From Saprospiraceae bacterium (GTDB lineage Bacteria > Bacteroidota > Bacteroidia > Chitinophagales > Saprospiraceae): 25,081 bases of DNA. Made by a program: the position numbers and the translations under genes. The notes beneath the pieces are model-generated. The model did not search any database. It saw nothing but the letters and a program-made list of their open reading frames with translations, and was not told the origin of the DNA. The DNA lies in the NCBI GenBank assembly GCA_022763215.1, contig JALEHC010000221.1:1-25081 (forward strand), in the 5' to 3' direction. This document shows positions 1-17,400 of this stretch, piece after piece. The stretch's first letter is position 1. Every line of letters starts with the position of its first letter.

Positions 1-1332
1 GGAAACAATGGCGACTTCACCTTTAATATTTCTGATGACAACGTTACAATGGTTGGCGGACAAGCTTGTGTTGAAGTATCTGTTGAAAACTTCACGGATA
101 TTCTGGGCTTGCAATTTAGTATCAACTATGATCCATCCATTTTGGAATTTGTCTCTGTCGGTAATTTTGGCCTTACAGGGCTTAATGAGAACCTAATGGG
201 GTTGCCGACAGGCGGAACACAAGAAGGCCAGATTACAGTGTCGTGGATAGACAACTCACTGGCAGGTGTAAGTTTATCAGATGGAACCGTCTTGTTTGAG
301 CTGTGTTTTAACACACTTGCAGGTGGTAGTTCGGAGGTTGAAATTAGTAACAACCCAACAAGTGTCCAGGTATTGGATAACAATGATAACGTACTTCCAT
401 ACAATGCAAATGCAGGTACCGTGAATGTGACCGGAGGTCCACCACCACCAATGGGAGATGATTTTACACTGATTATATCTGATGAGTTTGTTCAGACCAG
501 TGGAAGTTCGGTTTGTGTAGAAGTGACAACACAGAACTTTACCAATATTTTGGGGATGCAGTTTAGTGTAAACTATAATCCTTCAAAACTGACCTTCGAG
601 TCTGTGGGTAATTTTAATCTGGATGGATTGAATCAAAACCTAATGGGCTTACCAAATGGTAATGGTACACAAGCGGGTAATATTACAGTATCCTGGATTG
701 ATAATGCACTCGCTGGGATTACACTTCCTGATAATACAGTATTGTTTGAAATTTGCTTTACAGCAGATTTGACATCGGGTACCACTCCTGTGGAATTGTC
801 AAATACACCAACTTCTATTCAGATATTGGATAATAACGATGAGGTGTTGATGCCAACTTTGGTGGATGGTTCTGTATCAATTGGTAATCCTGGAGATGGA
901 TTAAAGATTGACATCGAAGATGCAACGGTATGTTCTGATGACAATGAAACCTTCTGTGTGGGTGTAACGGTGGAAGACTTTACCGATATTTTGGGAATGC
1001 AGTTTAGTATCGTCTATGATCCAACAGATTTGGAATACTCCTCTGTTGGCAACTTCAACCTAGATGGCTTGAACGCTAACTTAATGGGCTTGCCTGATGG
1101 CGGACCGACTAGCACGCAACCTGGGGTGATTACACTGTCGTGGATTGATAATGCGCTGTCTGGTGTGTCTTTGCCAGATGGAACTGAGATATTTGAAATA
1201 TGCTTTGAGCCGCTGGCTCCAGAAGGAACTACAAGCAATATTGAGTTTTCTAATATGCCGACTAGTATCCAGGTTATTGATATAAATGATGCACAAGTAC
1301 CATTTATTGATGAGCCCGGGGTGATTACTTTT
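1..1332 (+). other. Three tandem cohesin-like beta-sandwich modules (~145 aa each; unit 1 is truncated at the window edge) inside the SprB-like CDS. They are also visible as ~430-bp DNA-level tandem repeats.
   Basis: Three units share (V/F)CVEV(T/S)..NFT(D/N)ILG(M/L)QFS(I/V)NY(D/N)PS.L.F.SVGNF.L.GLN.NLMGLP....Q.G.IT(V/L)SWIDN.L.G..L.D.T.LFE(I/L)CF......S..E.SN.PTS.Q(V/I)LD.ND.V. This pattern (G..V.V.V....I.G.QF.i.YDP..L....V..G ... G.I...F.....LF.i.F.a ... i.d.nd....dG.V.Ig) parallels type I cohesin signatures. The units are separated by short Pro/Gly linkers (PPPP at 439-450). Confidence 0.5.
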
Positions 1333-4300
1333 GATTGTAATCAGTTTTCTGCTCCAGTTATTCAGGAGCCTGCGACGATTACCAACAATGACTGTTTTGG
1401 TGACATGGATGGTAGCATTAGCATCAGTGTGAATGGTGGTAGTGGTGACTTTTCATATGCATGGTCAAGCCCAGCGGGTGTAGGCAGTGTATCTATGATT
1501 GACAACTTGTCTGCTGGTAACTATACGGTAACGGTAACCGATAATATGTCTGGCCAGACGGCGATTAAAACTTATACGATTACTCAGCCAGCCACACCTG
1601 TAACAATTAATTCAATTGATGTAACAGATATTGTTTGTCCTGGTGAAAATTCAGGTGCTATCAGTGTGAACGCTTCCGGCGGTACAGGCACATTAAGCTA
1701 TAGCTGGACGCCAAATGCGCCTGCAACAGCAAGTATCACTAACCTTTCAGCAGGAGAATTTTATAGAGTAACCATTACGGATGCCAATGGATGTGAGGAA
1801 GTATCTTCCTTCATCGAAGTAGCAGAACCTGAGGCAATCGCTACAAATGCAGTTGTTACAGATATTGCTTGTAGTGGTGAAGCAAATGGTTCGATTGATA
1901 TTACGCCTTCCGGCGGAACGGGCTCCTTGTTTGTAGATTGGGATGTACTTCCTGATTTCCAAACTTCGCACTCAAACTTGAGTGCAGGTACTTATACCGT
2001 TACAATATCAGATGGAAATAACTGTGAATTGGTAGAATCCTTTGAAATTACAGATCCTGATCCAATTGTAATAAACGAACAGGTCCAAGATGTAGAATGT
2101 GCCGGCGACATGAATGGCTTTGTTAATTTGAACGTAAGTGGAGGTACTGCTTCCGCAGGATATTCAATCGACTGGGCTGATGCTGGATTAACGGACGATG
2201 AAGGAACACAAATGAACTTGGCAGCTGGTTCTTATGAAGTTACGATTACGGATGATAATAACTGTTCGATTGTAGAGGTAATTGATATAAACGAACCAAG
2301 TGCAATTGAACTAAATCCAACCGTTGAAAATGTGCTATGTGCTGGTGAAAACTCTGGTACTATTAGCCTTAATATTACAGGAGGTACTCCAAACCCTGAT
2401 TATGCCATCAACTGGGGAGGTCCTCTTCCTGATGGTCAGAGTATGCAAGCACAGTTGCCTGCGGGGACTTACCCTGTTACCGTGACGGACGGGAATGGTT
2501 GTGCAGAGATACAGAATATTACAGTGGAAGAGCCGAATGCTCCTATCATTGTTACTGCTATGGTAGAAGACATTGCCTGTGAAGGTGGGCCGACTGGTAG
2601 TATTAGCCTTAGCATAAGTGGTGGTACACCTGGTAATGCAGGATATTCGATTGACTGGGCAACCCTCACTGATGGTGAAATGATGCAGGAAAACCTGGAA
2701 GCAGGTAATTACACGGTAAGTGTAACTGATGAAAATGGCTGCGAAACAGTAGAGTCATTTGTTGTAAACTCTGACGCACCGATATTTATCAATGGTACTG
2801 TTGAAGATGTAAGTTGTGCCGGAGAAAGTGATGGTGGTATTTCAATTACCCTTGCTGGTGGCTCACAAAATTTTGATATTTCATGGGATGGACCAGGTGT
2901 TGATCCGCTGGAAGCTCAGCAAGTTAATCTGGGTGCAGGTGAATATACAATAACGGTCACAGATACACAGTCTGGTTGTGAAAAAATTGAAACATTTGAA
3001 GTGGCTGAACCAGGCGAGCTGGCTGCAACAGCTGATATCCAGAATGCAGCGTGTTTCGCGGAAGCGACAGGCTCTGTAGTGCTGGATGTTACAGGAGGTA
3101 CCGAAAACTATACCATCGATTGGAGTGGAGGTATTTCACAAAATGAAACAAATCCAAGTGGTTTGTTGGCTGATGATTATATGGTAACCATCACCGATGC
3201 CAATGGATGTACCCTTGAACAAACAATTACGGTAGGTGAAGCTGCTGAAATCTCAGTGATGGCTGATCTTACTAATATTAATTGTTCGGGTGATGAAACA
3301 GGTGCAATTAGTATCAGTATTTCAGGTGGTACACCAATGTACACTAGAGATTGGACGGACTTACCTGATAACTTAAATACACAAAACAACTTGGGCGCTG
3401 GTACCTATGAATTGGTAATTACTGATGCTAATGGTTGTAATGAAACAGTAAGCTTTGAACTGACAGAACCAGATCCAATTGAGCTGAATGAAGTTGTAGA
3501 ATACGTTGATTTGGGCAATGATGGCTCTGTTGATTTAAGTACAACAGGTGGGGTAGAGCCTTACACTTTCGAGTGGTCGGGGCCAAATACATTTAGCAGC
3601 TCCTCAGAAGATTTGACTAACCTGAATGATATAGGTGAATACTGCGTAACTGTTACCGATGCCAATGGTTGTGTTTACGAAGAATGCCTCGATGTCCGTC
3701 TAAGATTACAGTTTGGGTTTGAAACAATACAGTTTTCTTGTGGTGATCTTGATAATGGCTTAATTGACCTGGAAGTATTGGGGGGATTAGAACCATATAC
3801 CTTTGATTGGGATGTAACGGGGGCAGCTGACTCGCCATTGCTTGATGGTGTGGGCGCCGGTACTTATACCGTAACCGTTACGGATGCAGAAGGGACTCAA
3901 ATTACTGGAACTTTTGAAGTTGGTGAATATCCTGGTTTGGTGGTTTCTGAGACATTGACTCCAGCTCAAGGTTTGGTTAATAACTTTAATGGAGCTATCA
4001 ATCTAAATATTTCAGGAGGTGCACAGCCATATGATATTATTTGGGACAATGGCTTTACAACAGCTAATATCAGCGGTCTTCAAGCCGGTACTTACTGTGT
4101 GACGATTACCGATGCCAATGGCTGTACGTTCGAAGAATGTTACATTATCGAATTCATTCCGGATGAACTTGAAATTGAAGAATCCATTGCCATTGAGGCA
4201 AATTGTTCTGGTGATGATAATGGTCGTTTGTTGATTACAGTATATGGCGGTATTCCACCTTATACTATGACGATTAACATTAATGGTACGGATGAAGTCA

Positions 4301-5907
4301 TTACGAGTGTGAACCGTGAATTTGAAATTGAAGGTCTTGCAGCTGGTAGTTATAGCTACACTGTTGTAGATGGAAATGGCGACATGGTAGCTGGATCGGA
4401 AACGGTAGAAGAACCAGATCCACTGACTTTGCAAGGATTTAACGTACGACACGATACGGAATTGACAGGACCTGGAATTGGTACTGGCCGTATTCAATTG
4501 AATATTCAAGGTGGTACACCAAACTATTCAGTAACATGGTTGGGTACGCCATTACAAGGGCCAACTATTATTTCTTTGGACTCTGAAATTTATACACCTC
4601 AAGTAGTAGATAGCAGAGGTTGTACTATCATTTTCCCAGAGATAGAAGTTGAAGAATTTGCGATTGACCTGGAAGGTACGCCAGCTGTATGTACAGGTGA
4701 TGAAAATGGTGCTGTTGACCTTGTTATTACGGATGGAGACATGCCGTATACCTTCAGCTGGGAGCTAGAAAATGGAGGTACAGCAACTACAGAAGATATC
4801 AATAACCTGCCAGCCGGTACTTATACGGTTACCGTTACCGAAAATTCTGGTAATACATTGGTTGAAAACATTACTATTGGTACGCAATCAAACTTACAAT
4901 TGGAAGCAGAAGTTGCAACCAACTATAATGGATTTGATGTAAGCTGTGCTGATAGTGCGGATGGTGAAGTAAGTGCAAATGCAATCTTTAATGGTGCTGC
5001 TTGTACCGATTGTGATTACGAATGGGTCTTGGAGGGTGAGCTATTAGGCGTAAATCAGACCCTTACAGATGCTCGACCAGGTACCTATGAACTGACGGTT
5101 ATCGATCCGTTGATGTGTGAAAATATACAAGAAGTTGTTTTGGTCGCTCCAGATCCACTTGTATTAAACTCAAACATTCAGGAAGTGGCTTGTCCAGGCG
5201 ATCGCAATGGTGTCATTACGGTTATGGTAACTGGTGGCGTTGGAGGTTTCTTTGATTATGATTGGAGTAACGGAAGTAGCACTTTCCAAAATGCAAATCT
5301 ATCTTCTGGTACATATGCCTTGACCGTAAGTGATGATAACAACTGTGAAGTTTCTGATTTATTCGAATTAGTTGATCCGGCTCCATTAGAAATCAACTTA
5401 CAAATAGAAAACGATACGGACCCTGAAGGTTGTAATGGTTCTGTTTGGGCCGTTGTAAATGGTGGTTTCCCGCCATATACCTATGATTGGAGCACCCTGG
5501 AGGTTGACGAAACGCAGGCATTAGTTGAAAGTGTATGCCCTGGTGCTTATGTCGTTTCAGTAACAGATGTAAGAGGATGTACTCAAGTATCTACGGTCGG
5601 AAATGTATTGAATCGTTCCTTTGATTGTTTGGAAGAACGTATCGTTATCACACCTGACGGGAATGGTTCAAATGATGAGTTCATTATTAACTGTATCGAA
5701 GAATTGATGGAAAATCATCTGGAAGTTTACAACAGATGGGGACAATTGGTATTCGAAACAGATAATTATGACAATACTTGGGAAGGTACTTCTCAGAATG
5801 GAGATGTGCTTCCGGAAGGTCCATATTTCTTTGTATTGGATTATAGAGATCCGATTACTAATGAGATGACACAGTACAGAGGTTCAATGACAATTTTGAA
5901 AGAATAA
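1..5907 (+). CDS. SprB-like giant cell-surface gliding adhesin, 5'-truncated by the window edge (frame 1 is open from nt 1; >=1968 aa in window). It has cohesin-like modules, ~18 SprB-type repeats and a T9SS type B C-terminal domain.
   Basis: One uninterrupted ORF to the TAA at 5905-5907. The reading frame is open from nt 1, and the first ATG at 49 lies inside repeat unit 1, so the gene starts upstream of the window. Recurrent ~80-100 aa units carry the motifs C.G..(N/D)G.I and GG(T/S)..Y...W, typical of SprB repeats from Flavobacterium gliding adhesins. The C-terminal ~98 aa (ITPDGNGSNDEFIIN...YNRWGQLVFE...W.G...G..LP.G.YFF.L) match the gliding-motility-associated (T9SS type B) CTD. Confidence 0.9.
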   Translation, partial: GNNGDFTFNISDDNVTMVGGQACVEVSVENFTDILGLQFSINYDPSILEFVSVGNFGLTGLNENLMGLPTGGTQEGQITVSWIDNSLAGVSLSDGTVLFELCFNTLAGGSSEVEISNNPTSVQVLDNNDNVLPYNANAGTVNVTGGPPPPMGDDFTLIISDEFVQTSGSSVCVEVTTQNFTNILGMQFSVNYNPSKLTFESVGNFNLDGLNQNLMGLPNGNGTQAGNITVSWIDNALAGITLPDNTVLFEICFTADLTSGTTPVELSNTPTSIQILDNNDEVLMPTLVDGSVSIGNPGDGLKIDIEDATVCSDDNETFCVGVTVEDFTDILGMQFSIVYDPTDLEYSSVGNFNLDGLNANLMGLPDGGPTSTQPGVITLSWIDNALSGVSLPDGTEIFEICFEPLAPEGTTSNIEFSNMPTSIQVIDINDAQVPFIDEPGVITFDCNQFSAPVIQEPATITNNDCFGDMDGSISISVNGGSGDFSYAWSSPAGVGSVSMIDNLSAGNYTVTVTDNMSGQTAIKTYTITQPATPVTINSIDVTDIVCPGENSGAISVNASGGTGTLSYSWTPNAPATASITNLSAGEFYRVTITDANGCEEVSSFIEVAEPEAIATNAVVTDIACSGEANGSIDITPSGGTGSLFVDWDVLPDFQTSHSNLSAGTYTVTISDGNNCELVESFEITDPDPIVINEQVQDVECAGDMNGFVNLNVSGGTASAGYSIDWADAGLTDDEGTQMNLAAGSYEVTITDDNNCSIVEVIDINEPSAIELNPTVENVLCAGENSGTISLNITGGTPNPDYAINWGGPLPDGQSMQAQLPAGTYPVTVTDGNGCAEIQNITVEEPNAPIIVTAMVEDIACEGGPTGSISLSISGGTPGNAGYSIDWATLTDGEMMQENLEAGNYTVSVTDENGCETVESFVVNSDAPIFINGTVEDVSCAGESDGGISITLAGGSQNFDISWDGPGVDPLEAQQVNLGAGEYTITVTDTQSGCEKIETFEVAEPGELAATADIQNAACFAEATGSVVLDVTGGTENYTIDWSGGISQNETNPSGLLADDYMVTITDANGCTLEQTITVGEAAEISVMADLTNINCSGDETGAISISISGGTPMYTRDWTDLPDNLNTQNNLGAGTYELVITDANGCNETVSFELTEPDPIELNEVVEYVDLGNDGSVDLSTTGGVEPYTFEWSGPNTFSSSSEDLTNLNDIGEYCVTVTDANGCVYEECLDVRLRLQFGFETIQFSCGDLDNGLIDLEVLGGLEPYTFDWDVTGAADSPLLDGVGAGTYTVTVTDAEGTQITGTFEVGEYPGLVVSETLTPAQGLVNNFNGAINLNISGGAQPYDIIWDNGFTTANISGLQAGTYCVTITDANGCTFEECYIIEFIPDELEIEESIAIEANCSGDDNGRLLITVYGGIPPYTMTININGTDEVITSVNREFEIEGLAAGSYSYTVVDGNGDMVAGSETVEEPDPLTLQGFNVRHDTELTGPGIGTGRIQLNIQGGTPNYSVTWLGTPLQGPTIISLDSEIYTPQVVDSRGCTIIFPEIEVEEFAIDLEGTPAVCTGDENGAVDLVITDGDMPYTFSWELENGGTATTEDINNLPAGTYTVTVTENSGNTLVENITIGTQSNLQLEAEVATNYNGFDVSCADSADGEVSANAIFNGAACTDCDYEWVLEGELLGVNQTLTDARPGTYELTVIDPLMCENIQEVVLVAPDPLVLNSNIQEVACPGDRNGVITVMVTGGVGGFFDYDWSNGSSTFQNANLSSGTYALTVSDDNNCEVSDLFELVDPAPLEINLQIENDTDPEGCNGSVWAVVNGGFPPYTYDWSTLEVDETQALVESVCPGAYVVSVTDVRGCTQVSTVGNVLNRSFDCLEERIVITPDGNGSNDEFIINCIEELMENHLEVYNRWGQLVFETDNYDNTWEGTSQNGDVLPEGPYFFVLDYRDPITNEMTQYRGSMTILKE
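1369..5610 (+). repeat. About 18 tandem SprB-type repeat units (protein-coding) forming the stalk of the adhesin.
   Basis: Counted GG..(P)Y...W motifs, e.g. SVNGGSGDFSYAWSS, SGGTGTLSYSWTP, GGTENYTIDWSG, GGVEPYTFEWSG, GGLEPYTFDWDV, GGAQPYDIIWDN, GGFPPYTYDWST. Each is preceded by a C.G...G.I segment and followed by a (Y/T)TVT(V/I)TD.NGC strand. Confidence 0.7.
5611..5904 (+). other. T9SS type B C-terminal sorting domain (gliding motility-associated CTD, TIGR04131-like).
   Basis: NRSFDCLEERIVITPDGNGSNDEFIINCIEEL..LEVYNRWGQLVFETDNYDNTWEGTSQNGDVLPEGPYFFVLDYRD.....YRGSMTILKE matches the consensus FTPNGDG.ND.F.I.G......L.I.NRWG..V.E...Y.N.W.G...G..LP.GTY.Y... Confidence 0.85.
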
Positions 5908-5919
5908 ACAAATATCTAT

Positions 5920-5959
5920 GTGTATCCATCTTCGCATGCAGAAGGTGGGTACACTTTTT
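5920..5959 (+). terminator. Intrinsic terminator/attenuator immediately after the SprB-like gene and before PorP/SprF.
   Basis: A 14-bp stem, 5920-5933 paired with 5941-5954, including two G.U pairs, with loop GCATGCA, followed by TTTTT at 5955-5959. Confidence 0.55.
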
Positions 5960-6009
5960 AATAATCCCTGAGCATACGGCTTTCGCCAAATGCTGTAACC
6001 GATTTTATT

Positions 6010-6987
6010 ATGAAAAAGATACTTCTACTTTTAATTTCTATAACGGCATGCTTTTCCCTGGCTGCACAGGATGAAGCAATTTTTAATCAGTATCACATCA
6101 ATCCGATCTTGGTAAACCCTGCTTATGCTGGTTTTGAGCGTACTCCTAAAGCAGGTGGTATTGGGTTTTCTGATGATGATTTTAACGGAGTGCATATTTT
6201 ACAAGCAAACTACCGCGGGCAGTGGTCTGGGTTTGATGGTGCGCCTAAAACATATATGTTGTCTTACCATGGCCCAATTAGTAATACTTTTGGTCTGGGG
6301 GTAAGCCTTGGTTCTGAAACAGCTGCACAAATGCGCCGTTTCAAAGGTCAATTGAATATGGCGTTCCGCTTTCCTATCAAGGATAATTTCAGATTGACGA
6401 TTGGCCCTTCTTTGGAGGTTCAGCAAATGACTGTTGATAATGGCGTTGTAGACGATCCGTTCTATATTCCTTCTGATGAAACCCTGGAAGAGTTTATTAA
6501 CGGTAAGCGAGAATTTGATGCATCCTTAGGTATTATGGGAGAAATCAAGCAAAATACTTTGATTGGTTTGTCTTTTGCCAACTTGGTTCGTGCGCGTTTA
6601 GATAATATTTCTGACGATCAGCAAGAATCTTTCTTTTCTTATTACACTTTCTTTGCAAGACATCGATTCCAGGTAGCAGGGCCAGATTTTGAGTTGGTTC
6701 CGTCTATGATGATTCGTCAGTTAAGAGATGCACCTTTCCAAATTGATTTTAATTTGATGGCCAATTTTATGGTCGGAGAAAATAAAGACAATAGATTATC
6801 AGCTGGTCTATCCTATCGCTTTGGTGATTTGGGGGTACTATTAGGGTTTAATGTGTTCAATATTGATGTTTATTATGGATATGACGTTTCTTTCCGTCGA
6901 TTCCAGAAATTTAACATGGGTTCACACGAAATTACTATTGCTTATAAGCTGGTAAAAAAGAAAAGCGCTAATAAAGCGCAGCAATAA
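6010..6987 (+). CDS. Type IX secretion system outer-membrane protein, PorP/SprF family.
   Basis: A 325-aa ORF with ATG at 6010 and an N-terminal signal peptide (MKKILLLLISITACFSLAAQ). The family-typical N-terminal motif FNQY.INP.LVNPAYAGF follows. The size and beta-rich composition fit a beta-barrel. The gene sits immediately downstream of a type B CTD protein gene, which is the canonical sprB-sprF arrangement. Confidence 0.85.
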   Translation: MKKILLLLISITACFSLAAQDEAIFNQYHINPILVNPAYAGFERTPKAGGIGFSDDDFNGVHILQANYRGQWSGFDGAPKTYMLSYHGPISNTFGLGVSLGSETAAQMRRFKGQLNMAFRFPIKDNFRLTIGPSLEVQQMTVDNGVVDDPFYIPSDETLEEFINGKREFDASLGIMGEIKQNTLIGLSFANLVRARLDNISDDQQESFFSYYTFFARHRFQVAGPDFELVPSMMIRQLRDAPFQIDFNLMANFMVGENKDNRLSAGLSYRFGDLGVLLGFNVFNIDVYYGYDVSFRRFQKFNMGSHEITIAYKLVKKKSANKAQQ

Positions 6988-7010
6988 AAGATGTCCAATA
7001 ACAATTGGTA

Positions 7011-7060
7011 TTTGGGATGGCCTTCTTTCACTTGTGGAAGAAGGCTTTTTTTGTTTTTTT
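7011..7060 (+). terminator. Rho-independent terminator of the PorP/SprF gene. It is copy 1 of the TTTGGGATGGCC-hairpin repeat family.
   Basis: Stem GCCTTCTTTC (7020-7029) pairs with GGAAGAAGGC (7036-7045). The loop is 6 nt. A long T-tract follows at 7046-7060. Confidence 0.7.
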
Positions 7061-7597
7061 TGAATAAAAAATGAAGGTTGGAATGTTTTGGCACGGTACT
7101 TGCTGTATAGAAGGTGTATTAGAGAAAACAAATTAAGACGACCAGGAAAATTCAAACATGCTATGAGAAGTTTAGGCAAATAGAGTGCCAAAGTCAAAAA
7201 TGATTGACTAACTCTTACTCATATCCTAGGCTTCCGCTTCAACCATCTGCTTTTGCAGATCCTGCATTTTCTCGGCTTCTTACTTTGAATTGAAAGTTTG
7301 ACATTCAACTATTTTATAGTATTTGAATAGTACAGGTGAATTGAATAGTTCATCAATATTTTTCATTGTTGGTAGGTTAAATATACCTCCGGCAACAATC
7401 ACTTGTACATCGTCTTGGGTAGTCGTGCCATAAGAAATCGTGATGTATGAATATTGCCCAAGCACTAAATTGAATTTTGGTGTAGTTATTATAGTTGAGC
7501 CTATCGTATTCCGCCGAGTAGGAAGGAATCGCCTCTCCCAAATATTGGGAGAGGGAATAGGTTTTACCGATAACTACCTTACCCCCAATTTTTTGAA

Positions 7598-7645
7598 TAC
7601 CCTTTTAGGTGGTAAAATACCCCTAAAAGGGTATTTCTATTTTAA
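7598..7645 (+). terminator. Orphan terminator-like hairpin in a gene-free region.
   Basis: A perfect 12-bp stem, TACCCTTTTAGG (7598-7609) with CCTAAAAGGGTA (7622-7633). Inner GGTA/TACC pairing is also possible. TTTCTATTTT follows. No plus-strand CDS lies upstream within 600 nt. Confidence 0.4.
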
Positions 7646-8012
7646 ATAAATATGATATCTTTGTATATGTCTACGATAGTAGATTCTTTTCAAAAGAGCT
7701 TCCAATAATCCGCAAATAGCGGTCATACCAATCAAAAAATTCAGGGGAATATAATTTCATATCCCTATATGGTTCTTCAATAAAAAGTAGAGCCATTGAA
7801 ACCTTTATTTTTTCTATCCGTATACTGACTTAATGCATGCAAATAGTGCATGTTTTCAAGCCTCAATTTGAATGGCTTGCCTGTTTGATGGTTTTGTAGA
7901 GAATGTGAAGACGTGTAAAAAACAGGATTATAAATGACCTTATTTTATGGGCAATTATAAATTAAGGCGATTGGATTGTATGTGATTCACAAGAACCGTT
8001 TTCAAGTTATAC

Positions 8013-8540
8013 TTAAATCGGTTTTTGGGATGGCCTCTCTCCTAGGCAGACTGGAGGGGGGCTTTTTATTTTTTCTATATTTTGATATTCTTTTTCTTTT
8101 GGGGGCTCGGGGGCCAATATGCCGCTGGCCATGATTAATACGCCGATTCCGCCCAGAATACTTGCCATTAAGGTTGGCGATAATGAAAAATGCCAATTAT
8201 CTTCTCTTTTCCTTCCATAATGAAAGGCCAATAATAAAATGAAGGATGCAAATCCTGCAATTAACCAGGCTGTTTTTTCCACTATAGTTTTTTGAGTTTT
8301 GCTTTTCAGCAAATGATAATCTTTCGCATGAGCAGGCACCTGACTGCGATTGTTTTCATCTACGCTGTTTATGTTGCTCTTCCTAATTTTGGAGCGGAGA
8401 CAGCTTTCGCTATCTCCGCAAGTACAAACCAGGCTTTTACCTGGAAAAATTGAATTATTTGTTGATATGTTGCCAGCCAATATCGTATAGGCATAGATTG
8501 TGATGAGCAGACAACAGATCAACGGTTTATTTATAATCAT
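8013..8540 (-). CDS. Small membrane protein of unknown function. It has an N-terminal hydrophobic anchor, a CTCGDSESC cysteine cluster and two predicted TM helices.
   Basis: ATG at 8540 (complement) lies 5 nt after the stop of the upstream gene, suggesting an operon. The hydrophobic segments are LICCLLITIYAYTILAG, AWLIAGFASFILLLAFHY and LMASILGGIGVLIMASGILA. The last ~20 codons are encoded by the reverse complement of a hairpin repeat (8021-8076), so the true C-terminus is uncertain. Confidence 0.5.
   Translation of the reverse strand: MIINKPLICCLLITIYAYTILAGNISTNNSIFPGKSLVCTCGDSESCLRSKIRKSNINSVDENNRSQVPAHAKDYHLLKSKTQKTIVEKTAWLIAGFASFILLLAFHYGRKREDNWHFSLSPTLMASILGGIGVLIMASGILAPEPPKEKEYQNIEKIKSPPPVCLGERPSQKPI
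8021..8076 (+). repeat. Copy 2 of the TTTGGGATGGCCTCTCTCC ... GGNGGGGGGC-T-run hairpin, a terminator-like repeat.
   Basis: GCCTCTCTCC (8033-8042) pairs with GGAGGGGGGC (8053-8062); the stem forms in RNA using G.U pairs. TTTTTATTTTTT follows. The first 21 nt are near-identical to copies at 7011 and 17831. Confidence 0.5.
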
Positions 8541-8545
8541 GAGCT

Positions 8546-9349
8546 TTAAACATTTGGTTTGTTCAGGGAAACACTATTGTTACTTTGGTTTTCAAATACT
8601 TCTTCGATGTCCCATTTTTCAGAAAAAGGTTTATCGATTGTTTTAGGGCCCGCAAAATTGTAAAGCAAACCACCTCCGGCCAGCAAAATGATGATCGGAA
8701 GACAACCGCTCATGGAAGCACCTGCCGATCCGCCGGCAAATAAGGGAAATAAGATTGCTGCTGCAAAAGCTTGTTTAATCATAGCGAACAATAAAGCGAT
8801 TCCCAGGCCAATACCAATTATGGTAGCCGCACCACCAATTAATTTGCCAAATAGACCAAAATCGTTCAGTATCGTAATTTTTGTAACTGAGGTACGCGGC
8901 AGGTAGGATTTGTCTTTGAAAAATACATATTCCTGACTGATATGTTGCAAACGTCCCTTTTTGAAGTGATTTTCTCCATCCTTTCTATAATCTGCCCTAA
9001 TTCTGATCCCTTTTTTAACGATTCTTTTTAGCCTTCTTTTTTTGAGTTTGAAAATCCACTTTCGCAAACCCTTTGGAGCTTTCATTTGCTTTTCGAGTTG
9101 AGCCATAATTTCTTCATGACTCGTTGTGGCTCTCTTAAAGGATTGTAAATCTTGTAATGGAATTTGGTGAAGTTCAGAGGAAGTGGTACTACATCTGATA
9201 TAGAAAAGAGATTCGCCTGCGATGGAATCGAAGCGGATATTAATCTTGCTTCCATCTTTAAGGAATAGGGTACTGCAATCAGAGACGTTTTGTGCTTGGA
9301 CTGATAAATAGAAAAATACCAGAATACTGCTTGTGATTAAATTTTTCAT
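8546..9349 (-). CDS. Secreted/membrane-anchored protein of unknown function. It has a signal peptide, two small KDG-containing beta modules, a polybasic amphipathic segment and a C-terminal glycine-zipper TM pair.
   Basis: ATG at 9349 (complement). The signal peptide is MKNLITSSILVFFYLSVQAQ. Two related ~45-aa modules are present (FLKDGSKINIRFDSIAGESLFY... and DYRKDGENHFKKGRLQHISQEYVFF...). The highly cationic stretch is RKWIFKLKKRRLKRIVKKGIRIR. The Gly/Ala-rich TM helices are GGAATIIGIGLGIALLF and LFAGGSAGASMSGCLPIIILLAGGGLL. Confidence 0.6.
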   Translation of the reverse strand: MKNLITSSILVFFYLSVQAQNVSDCSTLFLKDGSKINIRFDSIAGESLFYIRCSTTSSELHQIPLQDLQSFKRATTSHEEIMAQLEKQMKAPKGLRKWIFKLKKRRLKRIVKKGIRIRADYRKDGENHFKKGRLQHISQEYVFFKDKSYLPRTSVTKITILNDFGLFGKLIGGAATIIGIGLGIALLFAMIKQAFAAAILFPLFAGGSAGASMSGCLPIIILLAGGGLLYNFAGPKTIDKPFSEKWDIEEVFENQSNNSVSLNKPNV

Positions 9350-9377
9350 ATGTAGGTTTTTTGGTTGATTGATACTT

Positions 9378-9385
9378 CAAAAGTA
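9378..9385 (-). promoter_or_regulatory. Candidate Bacteroidota sigma-A -7 element (TACTTTTG = TAnnTTTG) for the 9349-to-8013 operon.
   Basis: On the minus strand the motif TACTTTTG lies 28 nt upstream of the ATG. There is no Shine-Dalgarno sequence, as is typical of Bacteroidota. Confidence 0.3.
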
Positions 9386-10295
9386 TAGGGATGGGAGCGA
9401 AATAGTCAGGAAAATGATCATAGCAAAATATATAAAATACTTTAATGTCGATAATTTTAATGTCGAACTACGAATAGAAGGAAATAATGTTGTTAAATCT
9501 GATGGGGTGATAAGCTACTGATTTTTAAACTATTACATATTTGTGTTTATGTGGTTTCTCTATTTATATATAAAAAAATAACAAAGCGATTGAGCTGGAG
9601 TGAATTTGGCATAGTTTTTTCTATACTATGATTGACTGTTGGAAACATCCGATAAAGCTCGGATCGACACCGAACTAGAAAAAAGAATAAAAAACATATA
9701 AAAATTGTTTAATTTGATTTTTTGGCACGGTTTTTTCAATAGATAAAGTAGCAACAGAAAAGGAAAACAGCGTATATAAAAAGTACGAGAATTCCTGTTT
9801 TGTGCAACAAACATACTGAAGCCGAAAGGTTTCCAAACATACTACAGACGTTATAAAGGCGTCATTAATCGGTATCCAAAATAGGATGCCAATCAACTAT
9901 GAGCGATTACAACACTACACACATATGTGGATAAAGGAGAAGTAAGCGTACTATGAGAAAATAATTTTGCTTGCCTTCTCAACAGTGAATTTCCGTTTGC
10001 TGTTTTCTTCCACATCAATTGGCAGAAGCACCAAGAAATGCTTCATACAATCAGTAATAACCATTAAGTAAGGATTTAAGTAGATGATTTTGTGTCATTT
10101 AGTGTAGGATTTGCCGAAAGGCGAGCCACTAAAGACAGGGGAGAGGTATGTCTGATTGAACCGAAAAATACAGAATACTATAACGGATAGTGCCGATGGC
10201 ACAAGCGTCTAAGCATAACACCGCATAGCGGTGAACAGGATACGTATAACCAAAATTTCACACATATTTTTTAGTAATTTTAAACTACATCAAAA

Positions 10296-13200
10296 ATGAA
10301 AAACGTACTACTATCCCAGAATTGGGACCGAGAAAGCTTTGCTCCAAAGGAAGCAAACAACAACAAATTGGCAAACTGGTTGATTAAAGCAACACTTCTT
10401 TTTGCCTTACTTTTTAGCTCTTTGACAACAACTAACGCGCAATGTACCTTATTTTGTAATGGTACTTCGCAAACAACCGCTTTACCACTTTCTGTTAACA
10501 ACTCATGCGAGAGTGTAATTCTGGCGAGCCAACTGATCGATATGGATCAGACAGATTGCCCAGATGGAAAGCGACTGACCGTGAGAGACGAAATGAATAG
10601 TCAAATCGCGGAAGACATTGACCAAGTGGTATTTGATGCCACCGATTATATCGGCGAAGTGGTTAGTGTAACAGTGACCGACACAACTACCGGCTTATTT
10701 TGCGTAAGCTTCGTGGAAATCATTGACAATTTGCCTCCATCAGTAGACTGTCAGTCGGCTATGGTAAAATGTGTTGCAGACACAAGTGCAGCAGCAATTG
10801 GATTTCCAACGATTACAGACAATTGTGACAATGACGTGGTGCTAACCTATGTCGATAACATGGACGATCAGCCTTGTTTTGCACCGAATACACTTGTCAT
10901 CAATAGAGTGTGGACAGCCAGAGATGCTAGTAATAATGTAAGCACCTGTTCACAGACTATCTTAGTAGACCGTCCAAACTTAAATGAAATTGACTTTCCG
11001 GATGGGCTGGTACTGGATTGTGATAATGCAGATGTCGGATTGGATGTAACAGGGCAACCATCGATTACGGATGAAGTGATTGACAACAATGGCTTTTGTG
11101 ATTTGACCGTAACTTTTGCAGATGATACCTTATATACATGTGGAACGATAGAGTACGAGATTGTAAGAACATGGACGGTAGAAGATGATTGCTCTGATCA
11201 AACTGCTGTTTCTACACAAACAATTACAGTAACTGACCAGACCGCACCTGATATTACTTGCCCAGATAATGTGATGGTTCAGACTTTACCTGGCCAGTGT
11301 TATACTACGGTGACTTTACCAGAACCGACTTTGAGTGACAACTGTGACCCGAATGCAACCTTCTTAGTCAATACTTCGTATGGATCGGTTGGTACAGGAC
11401 CACACCCATTCGTACCGGTAGGAACGCATTCTGTACAGTATACTGGAGTTGATTTTTGTGGAAATGCAGTAGTGTGTACAATTGCCCTGAACGTAGTTGA
11501 TGATGAAGAACCGGTAGCTGTATGTAGTGACTTTACCGCTGTTTCGATTCCTTCTTCTGGGCTTGCAATGGTATCTGCGACTACTTTTGATGATGGAAGT
11601 AATGACAACTGTGCAACGGAGCTTTATTTTAAAGCTAAGAAGATGACAGATGGTACTTGTAATAACGCGAATGGTGATGACTCAAATGACCCTGGCAATC
11701 AGGAATGGTTTGATGATAGTGTGATCTTCTGCTGCGCAGAGACGGATACAGATGCACAAGTAATGATGCGTGTATATGAAATTGATCCGGGTGACGGACC
11801 AGTTGAACCAGGAAGAGAAGCACCAGGTGGAGATTTGTTTGGCCACTTTACAGAATGTATGGTAAATGTAAGCGTGCAGGATAAAATCAACCCAGTATTT
11901 ACCAACTGTCCGAATGATTTGACAATTACATGTACAGAAGATATTTCAGACTTGTCTGTTTTTGGAGTGGCACATATTGTAGACAATTGTTCTGCAACGC
12001 TAGATTCTACAGAAGTTATTGACATCAGTTCATGTGGTGAAGGAGCTATTACAAGAACCTTTACTGCGACGGATCAATCAGGTAACCAAACACAATGTGT
12101 ACAAACGATTAGCGTGATCAATGGTGATCCATTTGATGAGAATGATATTGTTTGGCCAGGCGACGTAACACTTGAGACATGTGGCGCAGGTACAGACCCA
12201 GAAGATTTGCCAGACGGTTTGCAGGAACCTCAGATATTGAGTGAAGATTGTACTATGGTTGCCTATAACTACGACGATCACTTGTTTGACATTGCCTTCC
12301 CGGCTTGTTACAAGATCTTGAGAACATGGACGGTCATCGACTGGTGCCAGTATGATCCAAATGATCCGGATGCAGAAGGACGATTTAGCGATGTACAAGT
12401 TATTAAAGTGGAAGATAATGAAGCACCGATAATGGATTGTCCAGATGATATAGTAGCGGCGGTTTCTACTAACTGCAACACAGGTACTGTAACACTTGAT
12501 CCACTAACAGCAGATGATTGTAACCCGAATGTATTGATTACGAACAATTCACCTTATGCAGATGCAGGTGGTGCGAATATCAGCGGTGAATATCCACTTG
12601 GACAAACGATAGTAACGATTACGGCTTCTGACAGATGTGGAAATACAACGACTTGCGAAGTCATGGTAACCGTAGAGGATTTGAGTGCACCTTCACCAGT
12701 ATGTATCGTGGGTATCTCAGCGAGCTTGGTCGAGATGAATGGCGAAATAATGGCAACGATTAATGCAGATGCCTTTGATGGCGGAAGTACTGATAATTGT
12801 ACATCACCAGAAGATTTGGATCTACTGATTCGGGTAGCGGGTGATGGACCAACAAATACGGCACCTACAACCTCACAACTTGTGTTTAACTGCGAAGATG
12901 TCGGGTCACAAGTGATCGAATTCTGGGCAGTCGATGAAGAAGGAAATGGTGATTTTTGTACGACTTATGTACTGATTCAGGATAATATGAACTTGTGTCC
13001 AGCTACGACAACAAGCGGTATGATAGCGGGTAGCATCAATACAGAAATGGGTGAAACAGTCGAAGATGTAATGGTGTACATCAACGCACCGGGCAACAAT
13101 CAGAGTATGACGAATATAGACGGTACATTTGAGTTCCTTGGTATTCCATTCGGATTTGATTATGCACTGGTACCTGAGAAAAATGACCAAGTAACGAACG

Positions 13201-14273
13201 GAGTGAATACACTGGATATGATCAAAATCTCGAGACATATTCTTGGCGTACAAAAATTGGATTCACCATACAAAATGATTGCTGCTGATGTGGATGGCTC
13301 TGGTAGCATCTCGGTTCTGGACCTAGTATACATGAGAAAGTTGATCTTGAATGTAAGCGAAAACTTCCCGAACAATACCAAATCATGGAAGTTTATCCCG
13401 GCTGACTATGAATTCACGGATGACACGAACCCATTTGCGGATGATTATCCAACAGCCTCTTCGATTGATGACTTTGATGTAAGCGAAATGTATACGGACT
13501 TTATTGGAGTGAAAATGGGAGATGTAGACAACTCAGCACAGCCAAATAGCTTGTTTGCACCAACGAACGACGATAACAGCAACAACTTAGTGATCAATAC
13601 AGAGAATACATATTTGCCGCAAGGCGAAGAAATAGAGGTACCATTTAGCGTAAGCGACATGCAAAATATCAATGGCTACCAGTTTACACTGAATGTTGAT
13701 CTTGATCAGGTAGAGATTGTAGAAGTTCTGGAAGGTGATTTGCCAGAGATGAATGAAGATAACTTCGGAATTGCGATGGAAGATGGCTGGATCACAACAA
13801 GCTGGAATGCAGCACCAGATGCAGAGTTGGCAGAAGATACGAGACTGTTTACACTGGTACTGAGAGCGAAAACGGACATTGAAGTGGCGAATGTGATCGA
13901 GTTGACATCGGATGTGACGGCTGCTGAAGCTTATGACACAGATGACAAGCAGAGCGGTGTTGATTTGAACTTTAGCCAGAATGTGACTGCAACGAACACG
14001 GTACAGGCAGAAGGCTACGAATTGTATCAGAATACGCCGAATCCGTTCCGCGATCAAACAACAATCGCCTTCGATTTGCCGGAAGCTGGGTATGCTGTAC
14101 TTACGATCTACAATGCGGCTGGAACGGAGCTATACAGAAAAGAAGGACAATATGCTGCCGGACGAAACAGCATTATGATCCAGAGACATGATTTGAATGC
14201 AAGCGGAGTAGTTTACTACAAGCTACAAACCAAGCAATTCGAAGCAACTAAGAAGATGGTAATCACAAAATAA
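10296..14273 (+). CDS. Large secreted T9SS type A cargo protein (1325 aa). Its domains in order are: multiple HYR/Ig-like modules, a CarbopepD-regulatory-like beta-sandwich, a dockerin-like module, a cohesin-like module, and a Por_Secre_tail CTD.
   Basis: ATG at 10296. The signal peptide has an unusually long n-region, with cleavage near NAQ/C at aa 48. HYR-type motifs recur (P.I.CP......C......P...DNCD ... G.H.V.YT..D..GN...C...V.V.D...P), along with RTWTV.D.C...QTI.V.D..AP signatures. The C-terminal YELYQNTPNPFRDQTTIAFDLPEAGYAVLTIYNAAGTELY...SGVVYYKL....ATKKMVITK matches the T9SS type A CTD. Confidence 0.9.
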   Translation: MKNVLLSQNWDRESFAPKEANNNKLANWLIKATLLFALLFSSLTTTNAQCTLFCNGTSQTTALPLSVNNSCESVILASQLIDMDQTDCPDGKRLTVRDEMNSQIAEDIDQVVFDATDYIGEVVSVTVTDTTTGLFCVSFVEIIDNLPPSVDCQSAMVKCVADTSAAAIGFPTITDNCDNDVVLTYVDNMDDQPCFAPNTLVINRVWTARDASNNVSTCSQTILVDRPNLNEIDFPDGLVLDCDNADVGLDVTGQPSITDEVIDNNGFCDLTVTFADDTLYTCGTIEYEIVRTWTVEDDCSDQTAVSTQTITVTDQTAPDITCPDNVMVQTLPGQCYTTVTLPEPTLSDNCDPNATFLVNTSYGSVGTGPHPFVPVGTHSVQYTGVDFCGNAVVCTIALNVVDDEEPVAVCSDFTAVSIPSSGLAMVSATTFDDGSNDNCATELYFKAKKMTDGTCNNANGDDSNDPGNQEWFDDSVIFCCAETDTDAQVMMRVYEIDPGDGPVEPGREAPGGDLFGHFTECMVNVSVQDKINPVFTNCPNDLTITCTEDISDLSVFGVAHIVDNCSATLDSTEVIDISSCGEGAITRTFTATDQSGNQTQCVQTISVINGDPFDENDIVWPGDVTLETCGAGTDPEDLPDGLQEPQILSEDCTMVAYNYDDHLFDIAFPACYKILRTWTVIDWCQYDPNDPDAEGRFSDVQVIKVEDNEAPIMDCPDDIVAAVSTNCNTGTVTLDPLTADDCNPNVLITNNSPYADAGGANISGEYPLGQTIVTITASDRCGNTTTCEVMVTVEDLSAPSPVCIVGISASLVEMNGEIMATINADAFDGGSTDNCTSPEDLDLLIRVAGDGPTNTAPTTSQLVFNCEDVGSQVIEFWAVDEEGNGDFCTTYVLIQDNMNLCPATTTSGMIAGSINTEMGETVEDVMVYINAPGNNQSMTNIDGTFEFLGIPFGFDYALVPEKNDQVTNGVNTLDMIKISRHILGVQKLDSPYKMIAADVDGSGSISVLDLVYMRKLILNVSENFPNNTKSWKFIPADYEFTDDTNPFADDYPTASSIDDFDVSEMYTDFIGVKMGDVDNSAQPNSLFAPTNDDNSNNLVINTENTYLPQGEEIEVPFSVSDMQNINGYQFTLNVDLDQVEIVEVLEGDLPEMNEDNFGIAMEDGWITTSWNAAPDAELAEDTRLFTLVLRAKTDIEVANVIELTSDVTAAEAYDTDDKQSGVDLNFSQNVTATNTVQAEGYELYQNTPNPFRDQTTIAFDLPEAGYAVLTIYNAAGTELYRKEGQYAAGRNSIMIQRHDLNASGVVYYKLQTKQFEATKKMVITK
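11247..11510 (+). other. HYR (hyalin-repeat) domain 1 of the 10296-14273 CDS.
   Basis: PDITCPDNVMVQTLPGQCYTTVTLPEPTLSDNCDPNATF...VGTHSVQYTGVDFCGNAVVCTIALNVVDDEEP. Confidence 0.6.
12423..12704 (+). other. HYR domain 2 of the 10296-14273 CDS.
   Basis: APIMDCPDDIVAAVSTNCNTGTVTLDPLTADDCNPNVLI...YPLGQTIVTITASDRCGNTTTCEVMVTVEDLSAP. Confidence 0.6.
13167..13349 (+). other. Dockerin-like module (two F-hand repeats) in the 10296-14273 CDS.
   Basis: KNDQVTNGVNTLDMIKISRHILGVQKLDSPYKMIAADVDGSGSISVLDLVYMRKLIL matches the type I dockerin duplicated segment D.N.DG.VN..D...L.RY.L. It is preceded by a CarbopepD_reg-like segment (GSINTEMGETVEDVMVYIN...TNIDGTFEF). Confidence 0.55.
13581..13973 (+). other. Cohesin-like module in the 10296-14273 CDS.
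   Basis: LVINTENTYLPQGEEIEVPFSVSDMQNINGYQFTLNVDLDQVEIVEV..GDLP....DNFGIAMEDGWITTSWNAAPD..L..DTRLFTLVLRAKTD...ANVIELTSD follows the same pattern as the three modules at 1-1332 (…NILGMQFS.NYDP..LEF.SV ... ITVSWIDN ... LFEICF). Confidence 0.45.
14013..14270 (+). other. T9SS type A C-terminal sorting domain (Por_Secre_tail, TIGR04183-like).
   Basis: YELYQNTPNPFRDQTTIAFDLPEAGYAVLTIYNAAGTELYRKEGQYAAGRNSIMIQRHDLNASGVVYYKLQTKQFEATKKMVITK. Confidence 0.85.
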
Positions 14274-14296
14274 ATATTGCTGAACACTGTTAATAA

Positions 14297-14330
14297 CAAT
14301 TTGAGAGGGCTTCCGAAAGGAAGCCCTTTT
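14297..14330 (+). terminator. Rho-independent terminator of the 10296-14273 gene.
   Basis: GGGCTTCC-GAAA-GGAAGCCC forms a perfect 8-bp stem with a GAAA tetraloop, followed by TTTTTTT. Confidence 0.8.
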
Positions 14331-14424
14331 TTTATATAAGTTAAGTGCTGGTGACTTAGCTAGCACTTTGTTAGGTAGGTATAAATTGATTTTTTTTCAA
14401 TGTAAGTGCAAAAACTTGGGGTGA

Positions 14425-14458
14425 GGTTGGCTTTTTGCCAATTTTGTGTGTAATTTTG
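14425..14458 (+). promoter_or_regulatory. Candidate Bacteroidota promoter for the 14656-17400 gene, with a -33 TTG, a 21-nt spacer and a -7 TAATTTTG.
   Basis: gaggTTGg, then 21 nt, then TAATTTTG, which is a perfect TAnnTTTG. This implies a 5' UTR of ~190 nt. Confidence 0.3.
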
Positions 14459-14655
14459 AAAGACAGGCCTTCGATACGCCCGTTTGTGTTTAGCGCCAGC
14501 TAAAAAACACAGGGCAAGCAATATTTTCTTCCACGTTGGCCCCCCAGTGTTCAGTACAAAAAACAGATATGGCTACAGTCATGTCCTGTAATCCGCATAT
14601 GAACACGAAACTCAATTTGAATTATTAATACGAAGAACTAAACAAATCAGCTGTC

Positions 14656-17400
14656 ATGAAATTAGATGTACAACAGCAGCTCCAGTGGTGGGCCTATTGC
14701 AATGATCGTGCTTTGCAAAACAAACCTCTCTTATACAAATACTTATTCTTGGCTTCTTGGGCAATATTTTTTGCCGGAAACCTGAATGCACAGCAATGTG
14801 GCGCTATTTGTGATGATTTGGTTACTGTTACGCTTAACTCTACAGGTTTGGGTGCCGCACCTGCAACAACCTTTGATGAAGGAACAGCAGCTTCCTGCTG
14901 TGTCGATTTTTTTGAAGTAAAACGCATGACTGACCCGGATGCGGCCTTCAATTCCAGTGTCGTATTTTCTTGTGCCGACGTCGACAACGGTCCGGTATCT
15001 GTTATTTTAAGAGTAGTTGGCTGTGATGGCTCTACCAGTACCTGCATGTCCCTAGCGAATGTGGAAGATAATATTGATCCGGTATTGGCTTGCCCAAACC
15101 CCATGACGGTTGGTTGCGGCCTGGGCGATAGCTCTCCGTCTATGACTGGACAGCCGGAAGTAACAGAAGCTTGCGGTGTGGCCGACTTGTTTTATATAGA
15201 CAATACCTTCGATACCAACTGTGGTGGAGGTTTTATAGAACGCGTATGGACGGCAACTGACCCTTCCGGAAATGCAGGCACTTGCGTGCAAATTATAAAC
15301 ATTGAAGATACGACGCCATTGATGGTCGATTTCCCAGATGACTATACGGTAAACTCTTGTGTAACCGTGGATGATCTGGACCCAGAAGATTTGCCAGCTC
15401 CTTTTGACTTTCCGGTTATTAATGGGGATGATTGCGAAATGGTATTTCAAAGTCATGAAGACTTTGTATTTACGGCAAGTGGAAATTCCTGTATCAAAAT
15501 ATTGAGAACCTGGAAAATTATTGACTGGTGTGTTTATAACCCAGGAGGAACAGATGGATTATACGAAGATGTACAAATTATCAAAGTAAACGATAATGCA
15601 CCTCCAACTTATGATTGCCCGGAGGACTATACCGTTGCTTTTCTTGATAGTGATTGTGATACTGATATCACAATTCCGATGCCAGATAATATTGACGATT
15701 GTTTACCGGATGTAGATGTGCATGTAAGTGGTGTGCTTGGAACCGGATTTAGTTATGAAGATGTCGGGGAAGGTACTTATGGTTTTACGTATACGCTGAC
15801 AGATGGTTGTGGTAATTCCAGTAGTTGCAGCATTAATGTAACGGTCGTAGATGGGAATGCACCAGACTTTGTTTGTTTGAATGGATTGGCGGTTTCTTTG
15901 ATGCCGAGTGGAATGATAGAGTTGGCAGCCGATGATTTTATTCAGTATGTGAGCGATAATTGTACCGCCACTTCCAATATCCAATTGCGAATTGGTGGGG
16001 CACCAGAACCGGGGCAAGATGATCCACCTGCTGAAAATAGCATTGTTTTTACATGTGATGACCTCGGCAATAATGTAGTGGCTATCTGGGCTGGTGATGA
16101 GGCTGGCAATTGGGATTATTGCCTTACTTATGTAGAAATTCAGGACAATAGCAATGGTTGTAACCCTATTACTGGGGGTATAAGCTTGGGTGGATACATC
16201 CAGAATGAAGACGGTGCTGAGTTAGAAAACATTATGGTGCGCCTAAATGAGGACGAAGAATTAGAAAGTATGACAGACTCTATTGGGGGCTATATGTTTG
16301 AACCAATTGAGCCAGGTATAGATTACTCCATCAAACCAGAAAAAGACACCAGTTATATGGAAGGTGTAAATACGTTGGATTTGATTTACTTGATGCGTCA
16401 TATTACGGGTACAGATCCTTTGGAGTCGCCCTATAAAATTATTGCAGCAGATATTGATAATTCTGGTAATGTCAGCATTATGGATGCAATATCTTTGCAG
16501 CGATGTATTTTATCGGTTACGGATACTTTCCCGAATAATACGAGCTGGCGATTTGTGAAATCTTCTTACTTATTCCCAAATCCGCTAAATCCGTTTACAC
16601 CACCATTTCCAGAGCAGATTGAAGCAGATAGCATGCTGCTAAATATGTTTAATGCTGACTTTGTGGGTATTAAGGTTGGTGATCTGGATAATTCTAGTAT
16701 GGCTTCTGCATTGCAGGAAACTACAGATCGTTCTGGCAATTTGTTGTTGTATACCAAGGAGCAACAGTTCAATGAAGGAGAAAAAGTTATGATTGAAGTA
16801 CGTGCTGCTGATTTTGCTTCATTGGCAGGTATGCAATGGGCTTTTGAGTTGGATTTGACTTCCGTCAAATGGGAATCTGTTCTTCCTGGAGTCATTCCGA
16901 TGGATGGTACAAATGCACATTTATCGAAAGATGGTCAATTGCGTTTTAGTTGGGCTACTGGCAATGCCTATACGGTAAAACAAGATGATATCTTGTTTAC
17001 TATTGTATTAGAAGCTTTAGCTGATAATAATATTAGTAATATTTTTCAGATGAATAGTCAATCTGCTTGGAAAAAAGCTTATTTGTCTAACAATCTGAAT
17101 AAGGTGGAAACACAATTGTTTGTGCAACAAGGAGATGCAAGTACCCTTGAGGTAATGGAAGCCTATCCGAATCCAACTGTAGGGCAAACAATGATTCCAT
17201 TTGTACTACCACAGCAAGCGGAGGTTCAGTTGAATGTATGGGACTCGAATGGACAATTGATTTTTTCAAATAAGCAAATATTTGCTGCAGGCCAGCATGC
17301 ATGGGCTATTGAAGCCAATGATTTGCCGGTATCAGGTACTTATTGGTATGAAGTAAAAACAGACGGAAAGACAAGCAGAGCAAAGCTAGTCAAACTATAA
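14656..17400 (+). CDS. Paralogous T9SS type A cargo protein (914 aa). Its domains in order are: HYR/Ig-like modules, a CarbopepD-regulatory-like segment, a dockerin-like module, a cohesin-like module, and a Por_Secre_tail CTD.
   Basis: ATG at 14656. The signal peptide has a similarly long n-region (…AIFFAGNLNAQ/QC). Residues 1-914 align colinearly with residues ~405-1325 of the upstream gene. Examples: CIKILRTWKIIDWCVYNP...EDVQIIKVNDNAPP vs CYKILRTWTVIDWCQYDP...SDVQVIKVEDNEAP, and VNTLDLIYLMRHITGTDPLESPYKIIAADIDNSGNVSIMD vs VNTLDMIKISRHILGVQKLDSPYKMIAADVDGSGSISVLD. The C-terminus EAYPNPTVGQTMIPFVLPQQAEVQLNVWDSNGQLIF....SGTYWYEVKTDGKTSRAKLVKL is a type A CTD. Confidence 0.9.
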   Translation: MKLDVQQQLQWWAYCNDRALQNKPLLYKYLFLASWAIFFAGNLNAQQCGAICDDLVTVTLNSTGLGAAPATTFDEGTAASCCVDFFEVKRMTDPDAAFNSSVVFSCADVDNGPVSVILRVVGCDGSTSTCMSLANVEDNIDPVLACPNPMTVGCGLGDSSPSMTGQPEVTEACGVADLFYIDNTFDTNCGGGFIERVWTATDPSGNAGTCVQIINIEDTTPLMVDFPDDYTVNSCVTVDDLDPEDLPAPFDFPVINGDDCEMVFQSHEDFVFTASGNSCIKILRTWKIIDWCVYNPGGTDGLYEDVQIIKVNDNAPPTYDCPEDYTVAFLDSDCDTDITIPMPDNIDDCLPDVDVHVSGVLGTGFSYEDVGEGTYGFTYTLTDGCGNSSSCSINVTVVDGNAPDFVCLNGLAVSLMPSGMIELAADDFIQYVSDNCTATSNIQLRIGGAPEPGQDDPPAENSIVFTCDDLGNNVVAIWAGDEAGNWDYCLTYVEIQDNSNGCNPITGGISLGGYIQNEDGAELENIMVRLNEDEELESMTDSIGGYMFEPIEPGIDYSIKPEKDTSYMEGVNTLDLIYLMRHITGTDPLESPYKIIAADIDNSGNVSIMDAISLQRCILSVTDTFPNNTSWRFVKSSYLFPNPLNPFTPPFPEQIEADSMLLNMFNADFVGIKVGDLDNSSMASALQETTDRSGNLLLYTKEQQFNEGEKVMIEVRAADFASLAGMQWAFELDLTSVKWESVLPGVIPMDGTNAHLSKDGQLRFSWATGNAYTVKQDDILFTIVLEALADNNISNIFQMNSQSAWKKAYLSNNLNKVETQLFVQQGDASTLEVMEAYPNPTVGQTMIPFVLPQQAEVQLNVWDSNGQLIFSNKQIFAAGQHAWAIEANDLPVSGTYWYEVKTDGKTSRAKLVKL
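15601..15852 (+). other. HYR domain of the 14656-17400 CDS.
   Basis: PPTYDCPEDYTVAFLDSDCDTDITIPMPDNIDDCLPDVDV...EGTYGFTYTLTDGCGNSSSCSINVTVVDGNAP. Confidence 0.6.
16327..16515 (+). other. Dockerin-like module of the 14656-17400 CDS.
   Basis: KDTSYMEGVNTLDLIYLMRHITGTDPLESPYKIIAADIDNSGNVSIMDAISLQRCIL. Confidence 0.55.
16738..17070 (+). other. Cohesin-like module of the 14656-17400 CDS.
   Basis: LLLYTKEQQFNEGEKVMIEVRAADFASLAGMQWAFELDLTSVKWESVLPG...DGQLRFSWATGNAYTVKQDDILFTIVLEALAD. Confidence 0.45.
17143..17397 (+). other. T9SS type A C-terminal sorting domain.
   Basis: LEVMEAYPNPTVGQTMIPFVLPQQAEVQLNVWDSNGQLIFSNKQIFAAGQHAWAIEANDLPVSGTYWYEVKTDGKTSRAKLVKL. Confidence 0.85.

Follow-up and report, generated by a model that had tools for sequence, protein, structure and literature searches.

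Cohesin and dockerin modules on type IX secretion substrates encoded by a conserved Saprospiraceae gene cluster

Gene content of the locus

The window (the whole stretch of 25,081 nucleotides analysed here) holds the right-hand portion of a cluster of genes conserved in Saprospiraceae/Lewinellaceae, with gene A, a PorP/SprF gene, a gap of 3.3 kb, gene C and its paralogue gene D (Table 1). The initial annotation had described the cohesin- and dockerin-bearing genes as adjacent. The PorP/SprF gene was indeed found between genes A and C, but the 3.3 kb that follow it, with two open reading frames on the opposite strand, separate it from gene C. A common secretion route, also proposed there, was supported, as all the cohesin and dockerin proteins of the cluster bear type IX secretion system (T9SS) sorting domains; these signals and PorP/SprF cleared the NCBIfam cutoffs. 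For the cohesin-dockerin cluster, the identities and folds of the modules, the sorting signals, the conservation of synteny and the size of the family were established.

Table 1. Genes and modules identified in the window, with the scores that support them (cutoffs after "vs").
Feature	Position	Strand	Evidence or remark
Gene A, 3' part	1..5907	+	at least 1968 aa visible; N-terminus outside window, no upstream stop
Cohesin A1	28..438	+	PF00963 42.8 bits vs 24.1; own HMM 197 bits
Cohesin A2	475..891	+	PF00963 40.3 bits; 60% identity to A1
Cohesin A3	916..1344	+	PF00963 32.6 bits; 57% identity to A1
Gene A SprB-repeat stalk region	1366..5598	+	PF13573 329 bits, 15 stretches
Gene A type B T9SS C-terminal sorting domain (CHU_C)	5620..5904	+	PF13585 80.7 bits; TIGR04131 45 vs 35
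PorP/SprF-family outer-membrane protein	6010..6987	+	TIGR03519 176.7 vs 90.55
Two open reading frames between PorP/SprF and gene C	8013-8540, 8546-9349	opposite to genes A and C	
Gene C, HYR-repeat T9SS type A cargo with C-terminal dockerin-cohesin cassette	10296..14273	+	1325 aa; HYR 61 bits, HYR_4C
C beta-sandwich (CarboxypepD_reg-like), first part	13008..13181	+	AF2 strands 9-63
C dockerin, two F-hand repeats, three helices	13173..13373	+	4uyp_B E 2.6e-7; Pfam 21.9 vs 22.9
C beta-sandwich, completing strands	13380-13544	+	AF2 strands 133-175
C cohesin (cohT)	13581..13979	+	Cohesin 33.5
C type A T9SS sorting domain	14016..14270	+	TIGR04183 28.5 vs 23
Gene D, shorter paralogue of gene C, same cassette	14656..17400	+	914 aa
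D dockerin, divergent	16336..16536	+	Pfam 18.3 vs 22.9; family HMM 91.7 bits; helix-3 position 17 Q, not R
D cohesin (cohT)	16732..17112	+	family HMM 96.1 bits
D type A T9SS sorting domain	17149..17394	+	PF18962 30.7-32.1 vs 27; TIGR04183 39.6 vs 23

From its domain content, gene A is predicted to encode a scaffoldin-like surface protein with a poly-cohesin array, SprB repeats and a type B C-terminal domain (CTD). The three cohesin modules that had been noted ahead of the stalk were confirmed: all of them exceeded the Pfam Cohesin cutoff, an AF2 model of A1 compared with Foldseek matched type I cohesins with a TM of 0.80, and the best structural matches of the cohesins were type I cohesins, including Coh-OlpA (3ul4). 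Since gene A is cut by the left edge of the window, the number of three holds only as a minimum, and complete relatives (2221-2563 aa) carry 4-15 cohesins. The putative label of "motile gliding adhesin" derives only from the SprB repeats, the type B CTD and PorP/SprF. The PorP/SprF protein is presumably the cognate partner of the gene A protein; such a gene was located 37-228 nt 3' of the CHU_C gene in all 25 related loci.

Genes C and D encode HYR-type, adhesin-like proteins, each with one dockerin-like segment and a cohesin about 80 aa downstream. Their description as paralogous type A cargo proteins with both modules was upheld for the paralogy (34% identity over 925 aa, E 1e-159) and for the sorting domains. 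The proposed Pfam check recovered the cohesins of genes A and C but left both dockerins below the cutoff, and the gene D cohesin, which had no Pfam match, was recognisable only by the family HMM and by the 33% identity of its cassette to that of gene C.

The dockerin-cohesin cassette

Over about 420 aa, the C-terminal cassette of these proteins consists of a beta-sandwich with an inserted dockerin, a cohesin and a type A sorting domain. The Pfam CarboxypepD_reg match of gene D and relatives breaks off at about position 52-63 of the 82-position profile, and in gene C the covarying pairs 17-172, 24-173, 47-173 and 24-136 join the two parts of the sandwich on either side of the dockerin. AF2 modelled the 427-aa tail with a pLDDT of 93 and a pTM of 0.76, with disorder confined to the linker before the CTD; the gene C dockerin helices (74-85, 93-99 and 109-119) had a pLDDT above 95. 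At least 1100 homologues at about 40% identity align along the whole 427 aa. A search with the cassette returned 10,982 representative clusters at E<=1e-30, and in all of the best 150 of these it forms the extreme C-terminus. Of 149 diverse relatives, 129 have the dockerin, the cohesin and the CTD exactly once each.

The dual F-hand modules had been called dockerin-like, and their Pfam scores (18.6-21.9 for gene C and 16.7-18.3 for gene D) are both below the cutoff; the homology to solved type I dockerins nevertheless stood. When the dockerin family profile was compared with the PDB, the matches were dockerins only (13 chains, best E 3.5e-6), and some relatives score above the Dockerin_1 cutoff of Pfam (P0247 with 23.9 and P0214 with 51.7 bits). 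These sequence comparisons support homology of the cassette segments to type I dockerins. The first F-hand loop does not have the position-5 ligand; in its place most relatives have Leu, gene C has Thr and gene D has Met. This missing ligand and the sub-cutoff scores of the window dockerins both count against the assembly proposed below. The near-invariant dockerin recognition positions speak for it. The stalk and cassette cohesins, which hhalign relates with 99.3% probability, both have GxQF[ST] in strand 3, NFG in strand 5, ITxSW in strand 6 and E in strand 8; these shared motifs belong to the canonical dockerin-binding sheet.

Conservation of the cluster and candidate interactions

The co-conservation for which the initial annotation had proposed a check was found: the cluster is syntenic in 25 distinct Saprospiraceae/Lewinellaceae loci, including three cultured species. 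At the sequence level, none of the findings that it had named as speaking against its proposal, such as an unrelated fold of the repeats or a lack of synteny in relatives, was made. The components are, in gene order, an HYR-dockerin-cohesin cargo, a small cohesin-CTD protein of about 263 aa, the poly-cohesin (4-15 modules)-SprB-type B stalk protein and PorP/SprF. The small protein, made up of a signal peptide, a single cohesin and a type A CTD, is encoded upstream, beyond the edge of the window; in each of the 16 loci where upstream sequence exceeds 1.1 kb, its gene lies 5' of the type B gene, and the cargo gene lies further 5' in 6/6 loci with sufficient sequence. Neolewinella agarilytica DSM 24740, an isolate, has the four as intact open reading frames of 1478, 263, 2563 and 322 aa. 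In about half of the loci, as in the window, a cargo gene also lies downstream (present in 10 loci, missing from six); the downstream cargo genes of the window are the variable part of the cluster, which counts against the assembly proposed below.

In our proposal, the T9SS would export all the components, and the type B CTD with PorP/SprF would retain the poly-cohesin protein on the surface, while the cargo would be processed at its type A CTD. The cargo dockerin would lean on the cohesin of its own cassette, forming a closed, rigid pedestal, and its face (T10/T11 and R/K17-18 of both repeats) may bind cohesins in trans, the candidate partners being the stalk array, as the initial annotation had suggested, the single-cohesin anchor or the cassette of another cargo. 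The outcome would be a Ca2+-dependent multi-adhesin assembly. We infer every binding step, the Ca2+ dependence, the surface retention and any movement, and the chances appear about even that the cluster products constitute a non-cellulosomal cohesin-dockerin system of type IX secretion substrates.

The cassette could also act only in cis, as a rigid membrane-proximal stalk for type A cargo, the type B tandem cohesins being Ig-like spacer or adhesive modules without a dockerin partner and the cluster being conserved as a set of co-regulated surface genes. The pTM of the cassette implies that the dockerin part and the cohesin share one rigid frame. Together with the 1:1 co-inheritance of the two modules and a weak covariation that links dockerin R116 to cohesin position 273 (top inter-domain score 1.51, where four shuffles peaked at 1.04-1.37; subfamily structure is a confounder), the model suggests that each dockerin packs onto the cohesin of its own cassette; such packing could leave the dockerin permanently occupied and the stalk cohesins never bound. 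Moreover, with about 11,000 clusters the cassette family dwarfs the poly-cohesin family (38 genome loci). As a general C-terminal module, the cassette does not make the neighbouring proteins a dedicated pair for the gene A adhesin, and with thousands of cassette proteins elsewhere in these genomes, synteny may reflect co-regulation rather than physical partnership. This reading is nonetheless rather unlikely in our view, because the stalk cohesins keep the strand 3/5/6/8 motifs of the cassette cohesin and occur in scaffoldin-like multiple copies with 57-60% identity, and the dedicated single-cohesin anchor gene is always there. Dockerin units without a neighbouring cohesin (P0141 and P0244) and N-terminal cohesins together with a cassette (P0147, P0151 and others) also argue against it, and these unpaired modules imply partners in trans.

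Trans contacts might also join one cargo dockerin to the cassette cohesin of the next, so that HYR adhesins would form chains or a mesh, primed or anchored by the poly-cohesin and single-cohesin proteins. Both partners of the pair are present in every cargo, tandem-cassette proteins occur naturally (P0214 and P0194), and the 116-273 pair is equally compatible with cis or trans contact. Such head-to-tail polymerisation seems improbable, as AF2 confidently places both modules together in one chain with a short linker of 14 aa, and the present evidence does not distinguish the two contacts. Finally, tandem cohesins, dockerins and a surface anchor mirror cellulosomes and the scaffold proposed for Ca. 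Stygibacter, and the initial annotation had spoken of a cellulosome-style scaffold. Genes C and D, the N. agarilytica cluster genes and nine diverse cassette proteins yielded no glycoside hydrolase, CBM or peptidase domain, and the passenger regions are HYR or Ig-like. The absence of glycoside hydrolases indicates that the system is not a cellulosome, and an enzyme complex degrading polysaccharide is thus highly improbable.

Comparison with known systems

As in the Clostridium thermocellum cellulosome (CipA), tandem type-I-like cohesins are carried by one large surface protein, a distinct anchored protein has a single cohesin (compare OlpA/OlpC), and the dockerins have two F-hand repeats with conserved residues at positions 10/11 and 17/18. 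In contrast to the clostridial system, the host is a Gram-negative Bacteroidota member, T9SS type A/B sorting domains and PorP/SprF take the place of SLH or sortase attachment, and the cargo consists of HYR/Ig-like adhesins without CBM rather than CAZymes. Each dockerin is inserted into a beta-sandwich with its own cohesin downstream in cis, and the first Ca loop is degenerate.

In Flavobacterium johnsoniae, SprB is a gliding adhesin and SprF its PorP-like partner. The two loci share SprB repeats, a type B (CHU_C/TIGR04131) domain and a PorP/SprF-family gene directly 3'. Gene A differs in its N-terminal cohesin array and in size (about 2200-2600 aa in complete relatives, compared with about 6500 aa for SprB), its upstream neighbours encode cohesin/dockerin proteins, and movement is here only a putative trait.

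Peer et al., in 2009, reportedly surveyed non-cellulosomal cohesin and dockerin modules (cited via PMC6487960). Such modules, exemplified by the cohesins of Archaeoglobus fulgidus (2xdh) and of Clostridium perfringens GH84/GH33 proteins (2w1n, 2vo8), similarly occur on proteins unconnected with cellulose breakdown, at times with cohesin and dockerin in a single polypeptide. The present modules differ from them in forming a fixed C-terminal cassette in about 11,000 protein clusters and in belonging to a conserved multi-gene cluster linked to the T9SS.

A search of the accessible literature turned up no comparable cluster. The underlying idea nevertheless has a precedent, since a tandem-cohesin scaffoldin anchored by a T9SS CTD and recruiting secreted dockerin proteins was already proposed in silico for Ca. 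Stygibacter (Cloacimonadota) (Williams et al. 2021, PMC8542988). That system has CBM2/CBM3 and dockerin-tagged chitinase, amylase and peptidases (PMC8542988), whereas the cluster described here combines SprB repeats, a type B CTD and PorP/SprF with non-enzymatic HYR cargo that carries dockerin and cohesin in cis.

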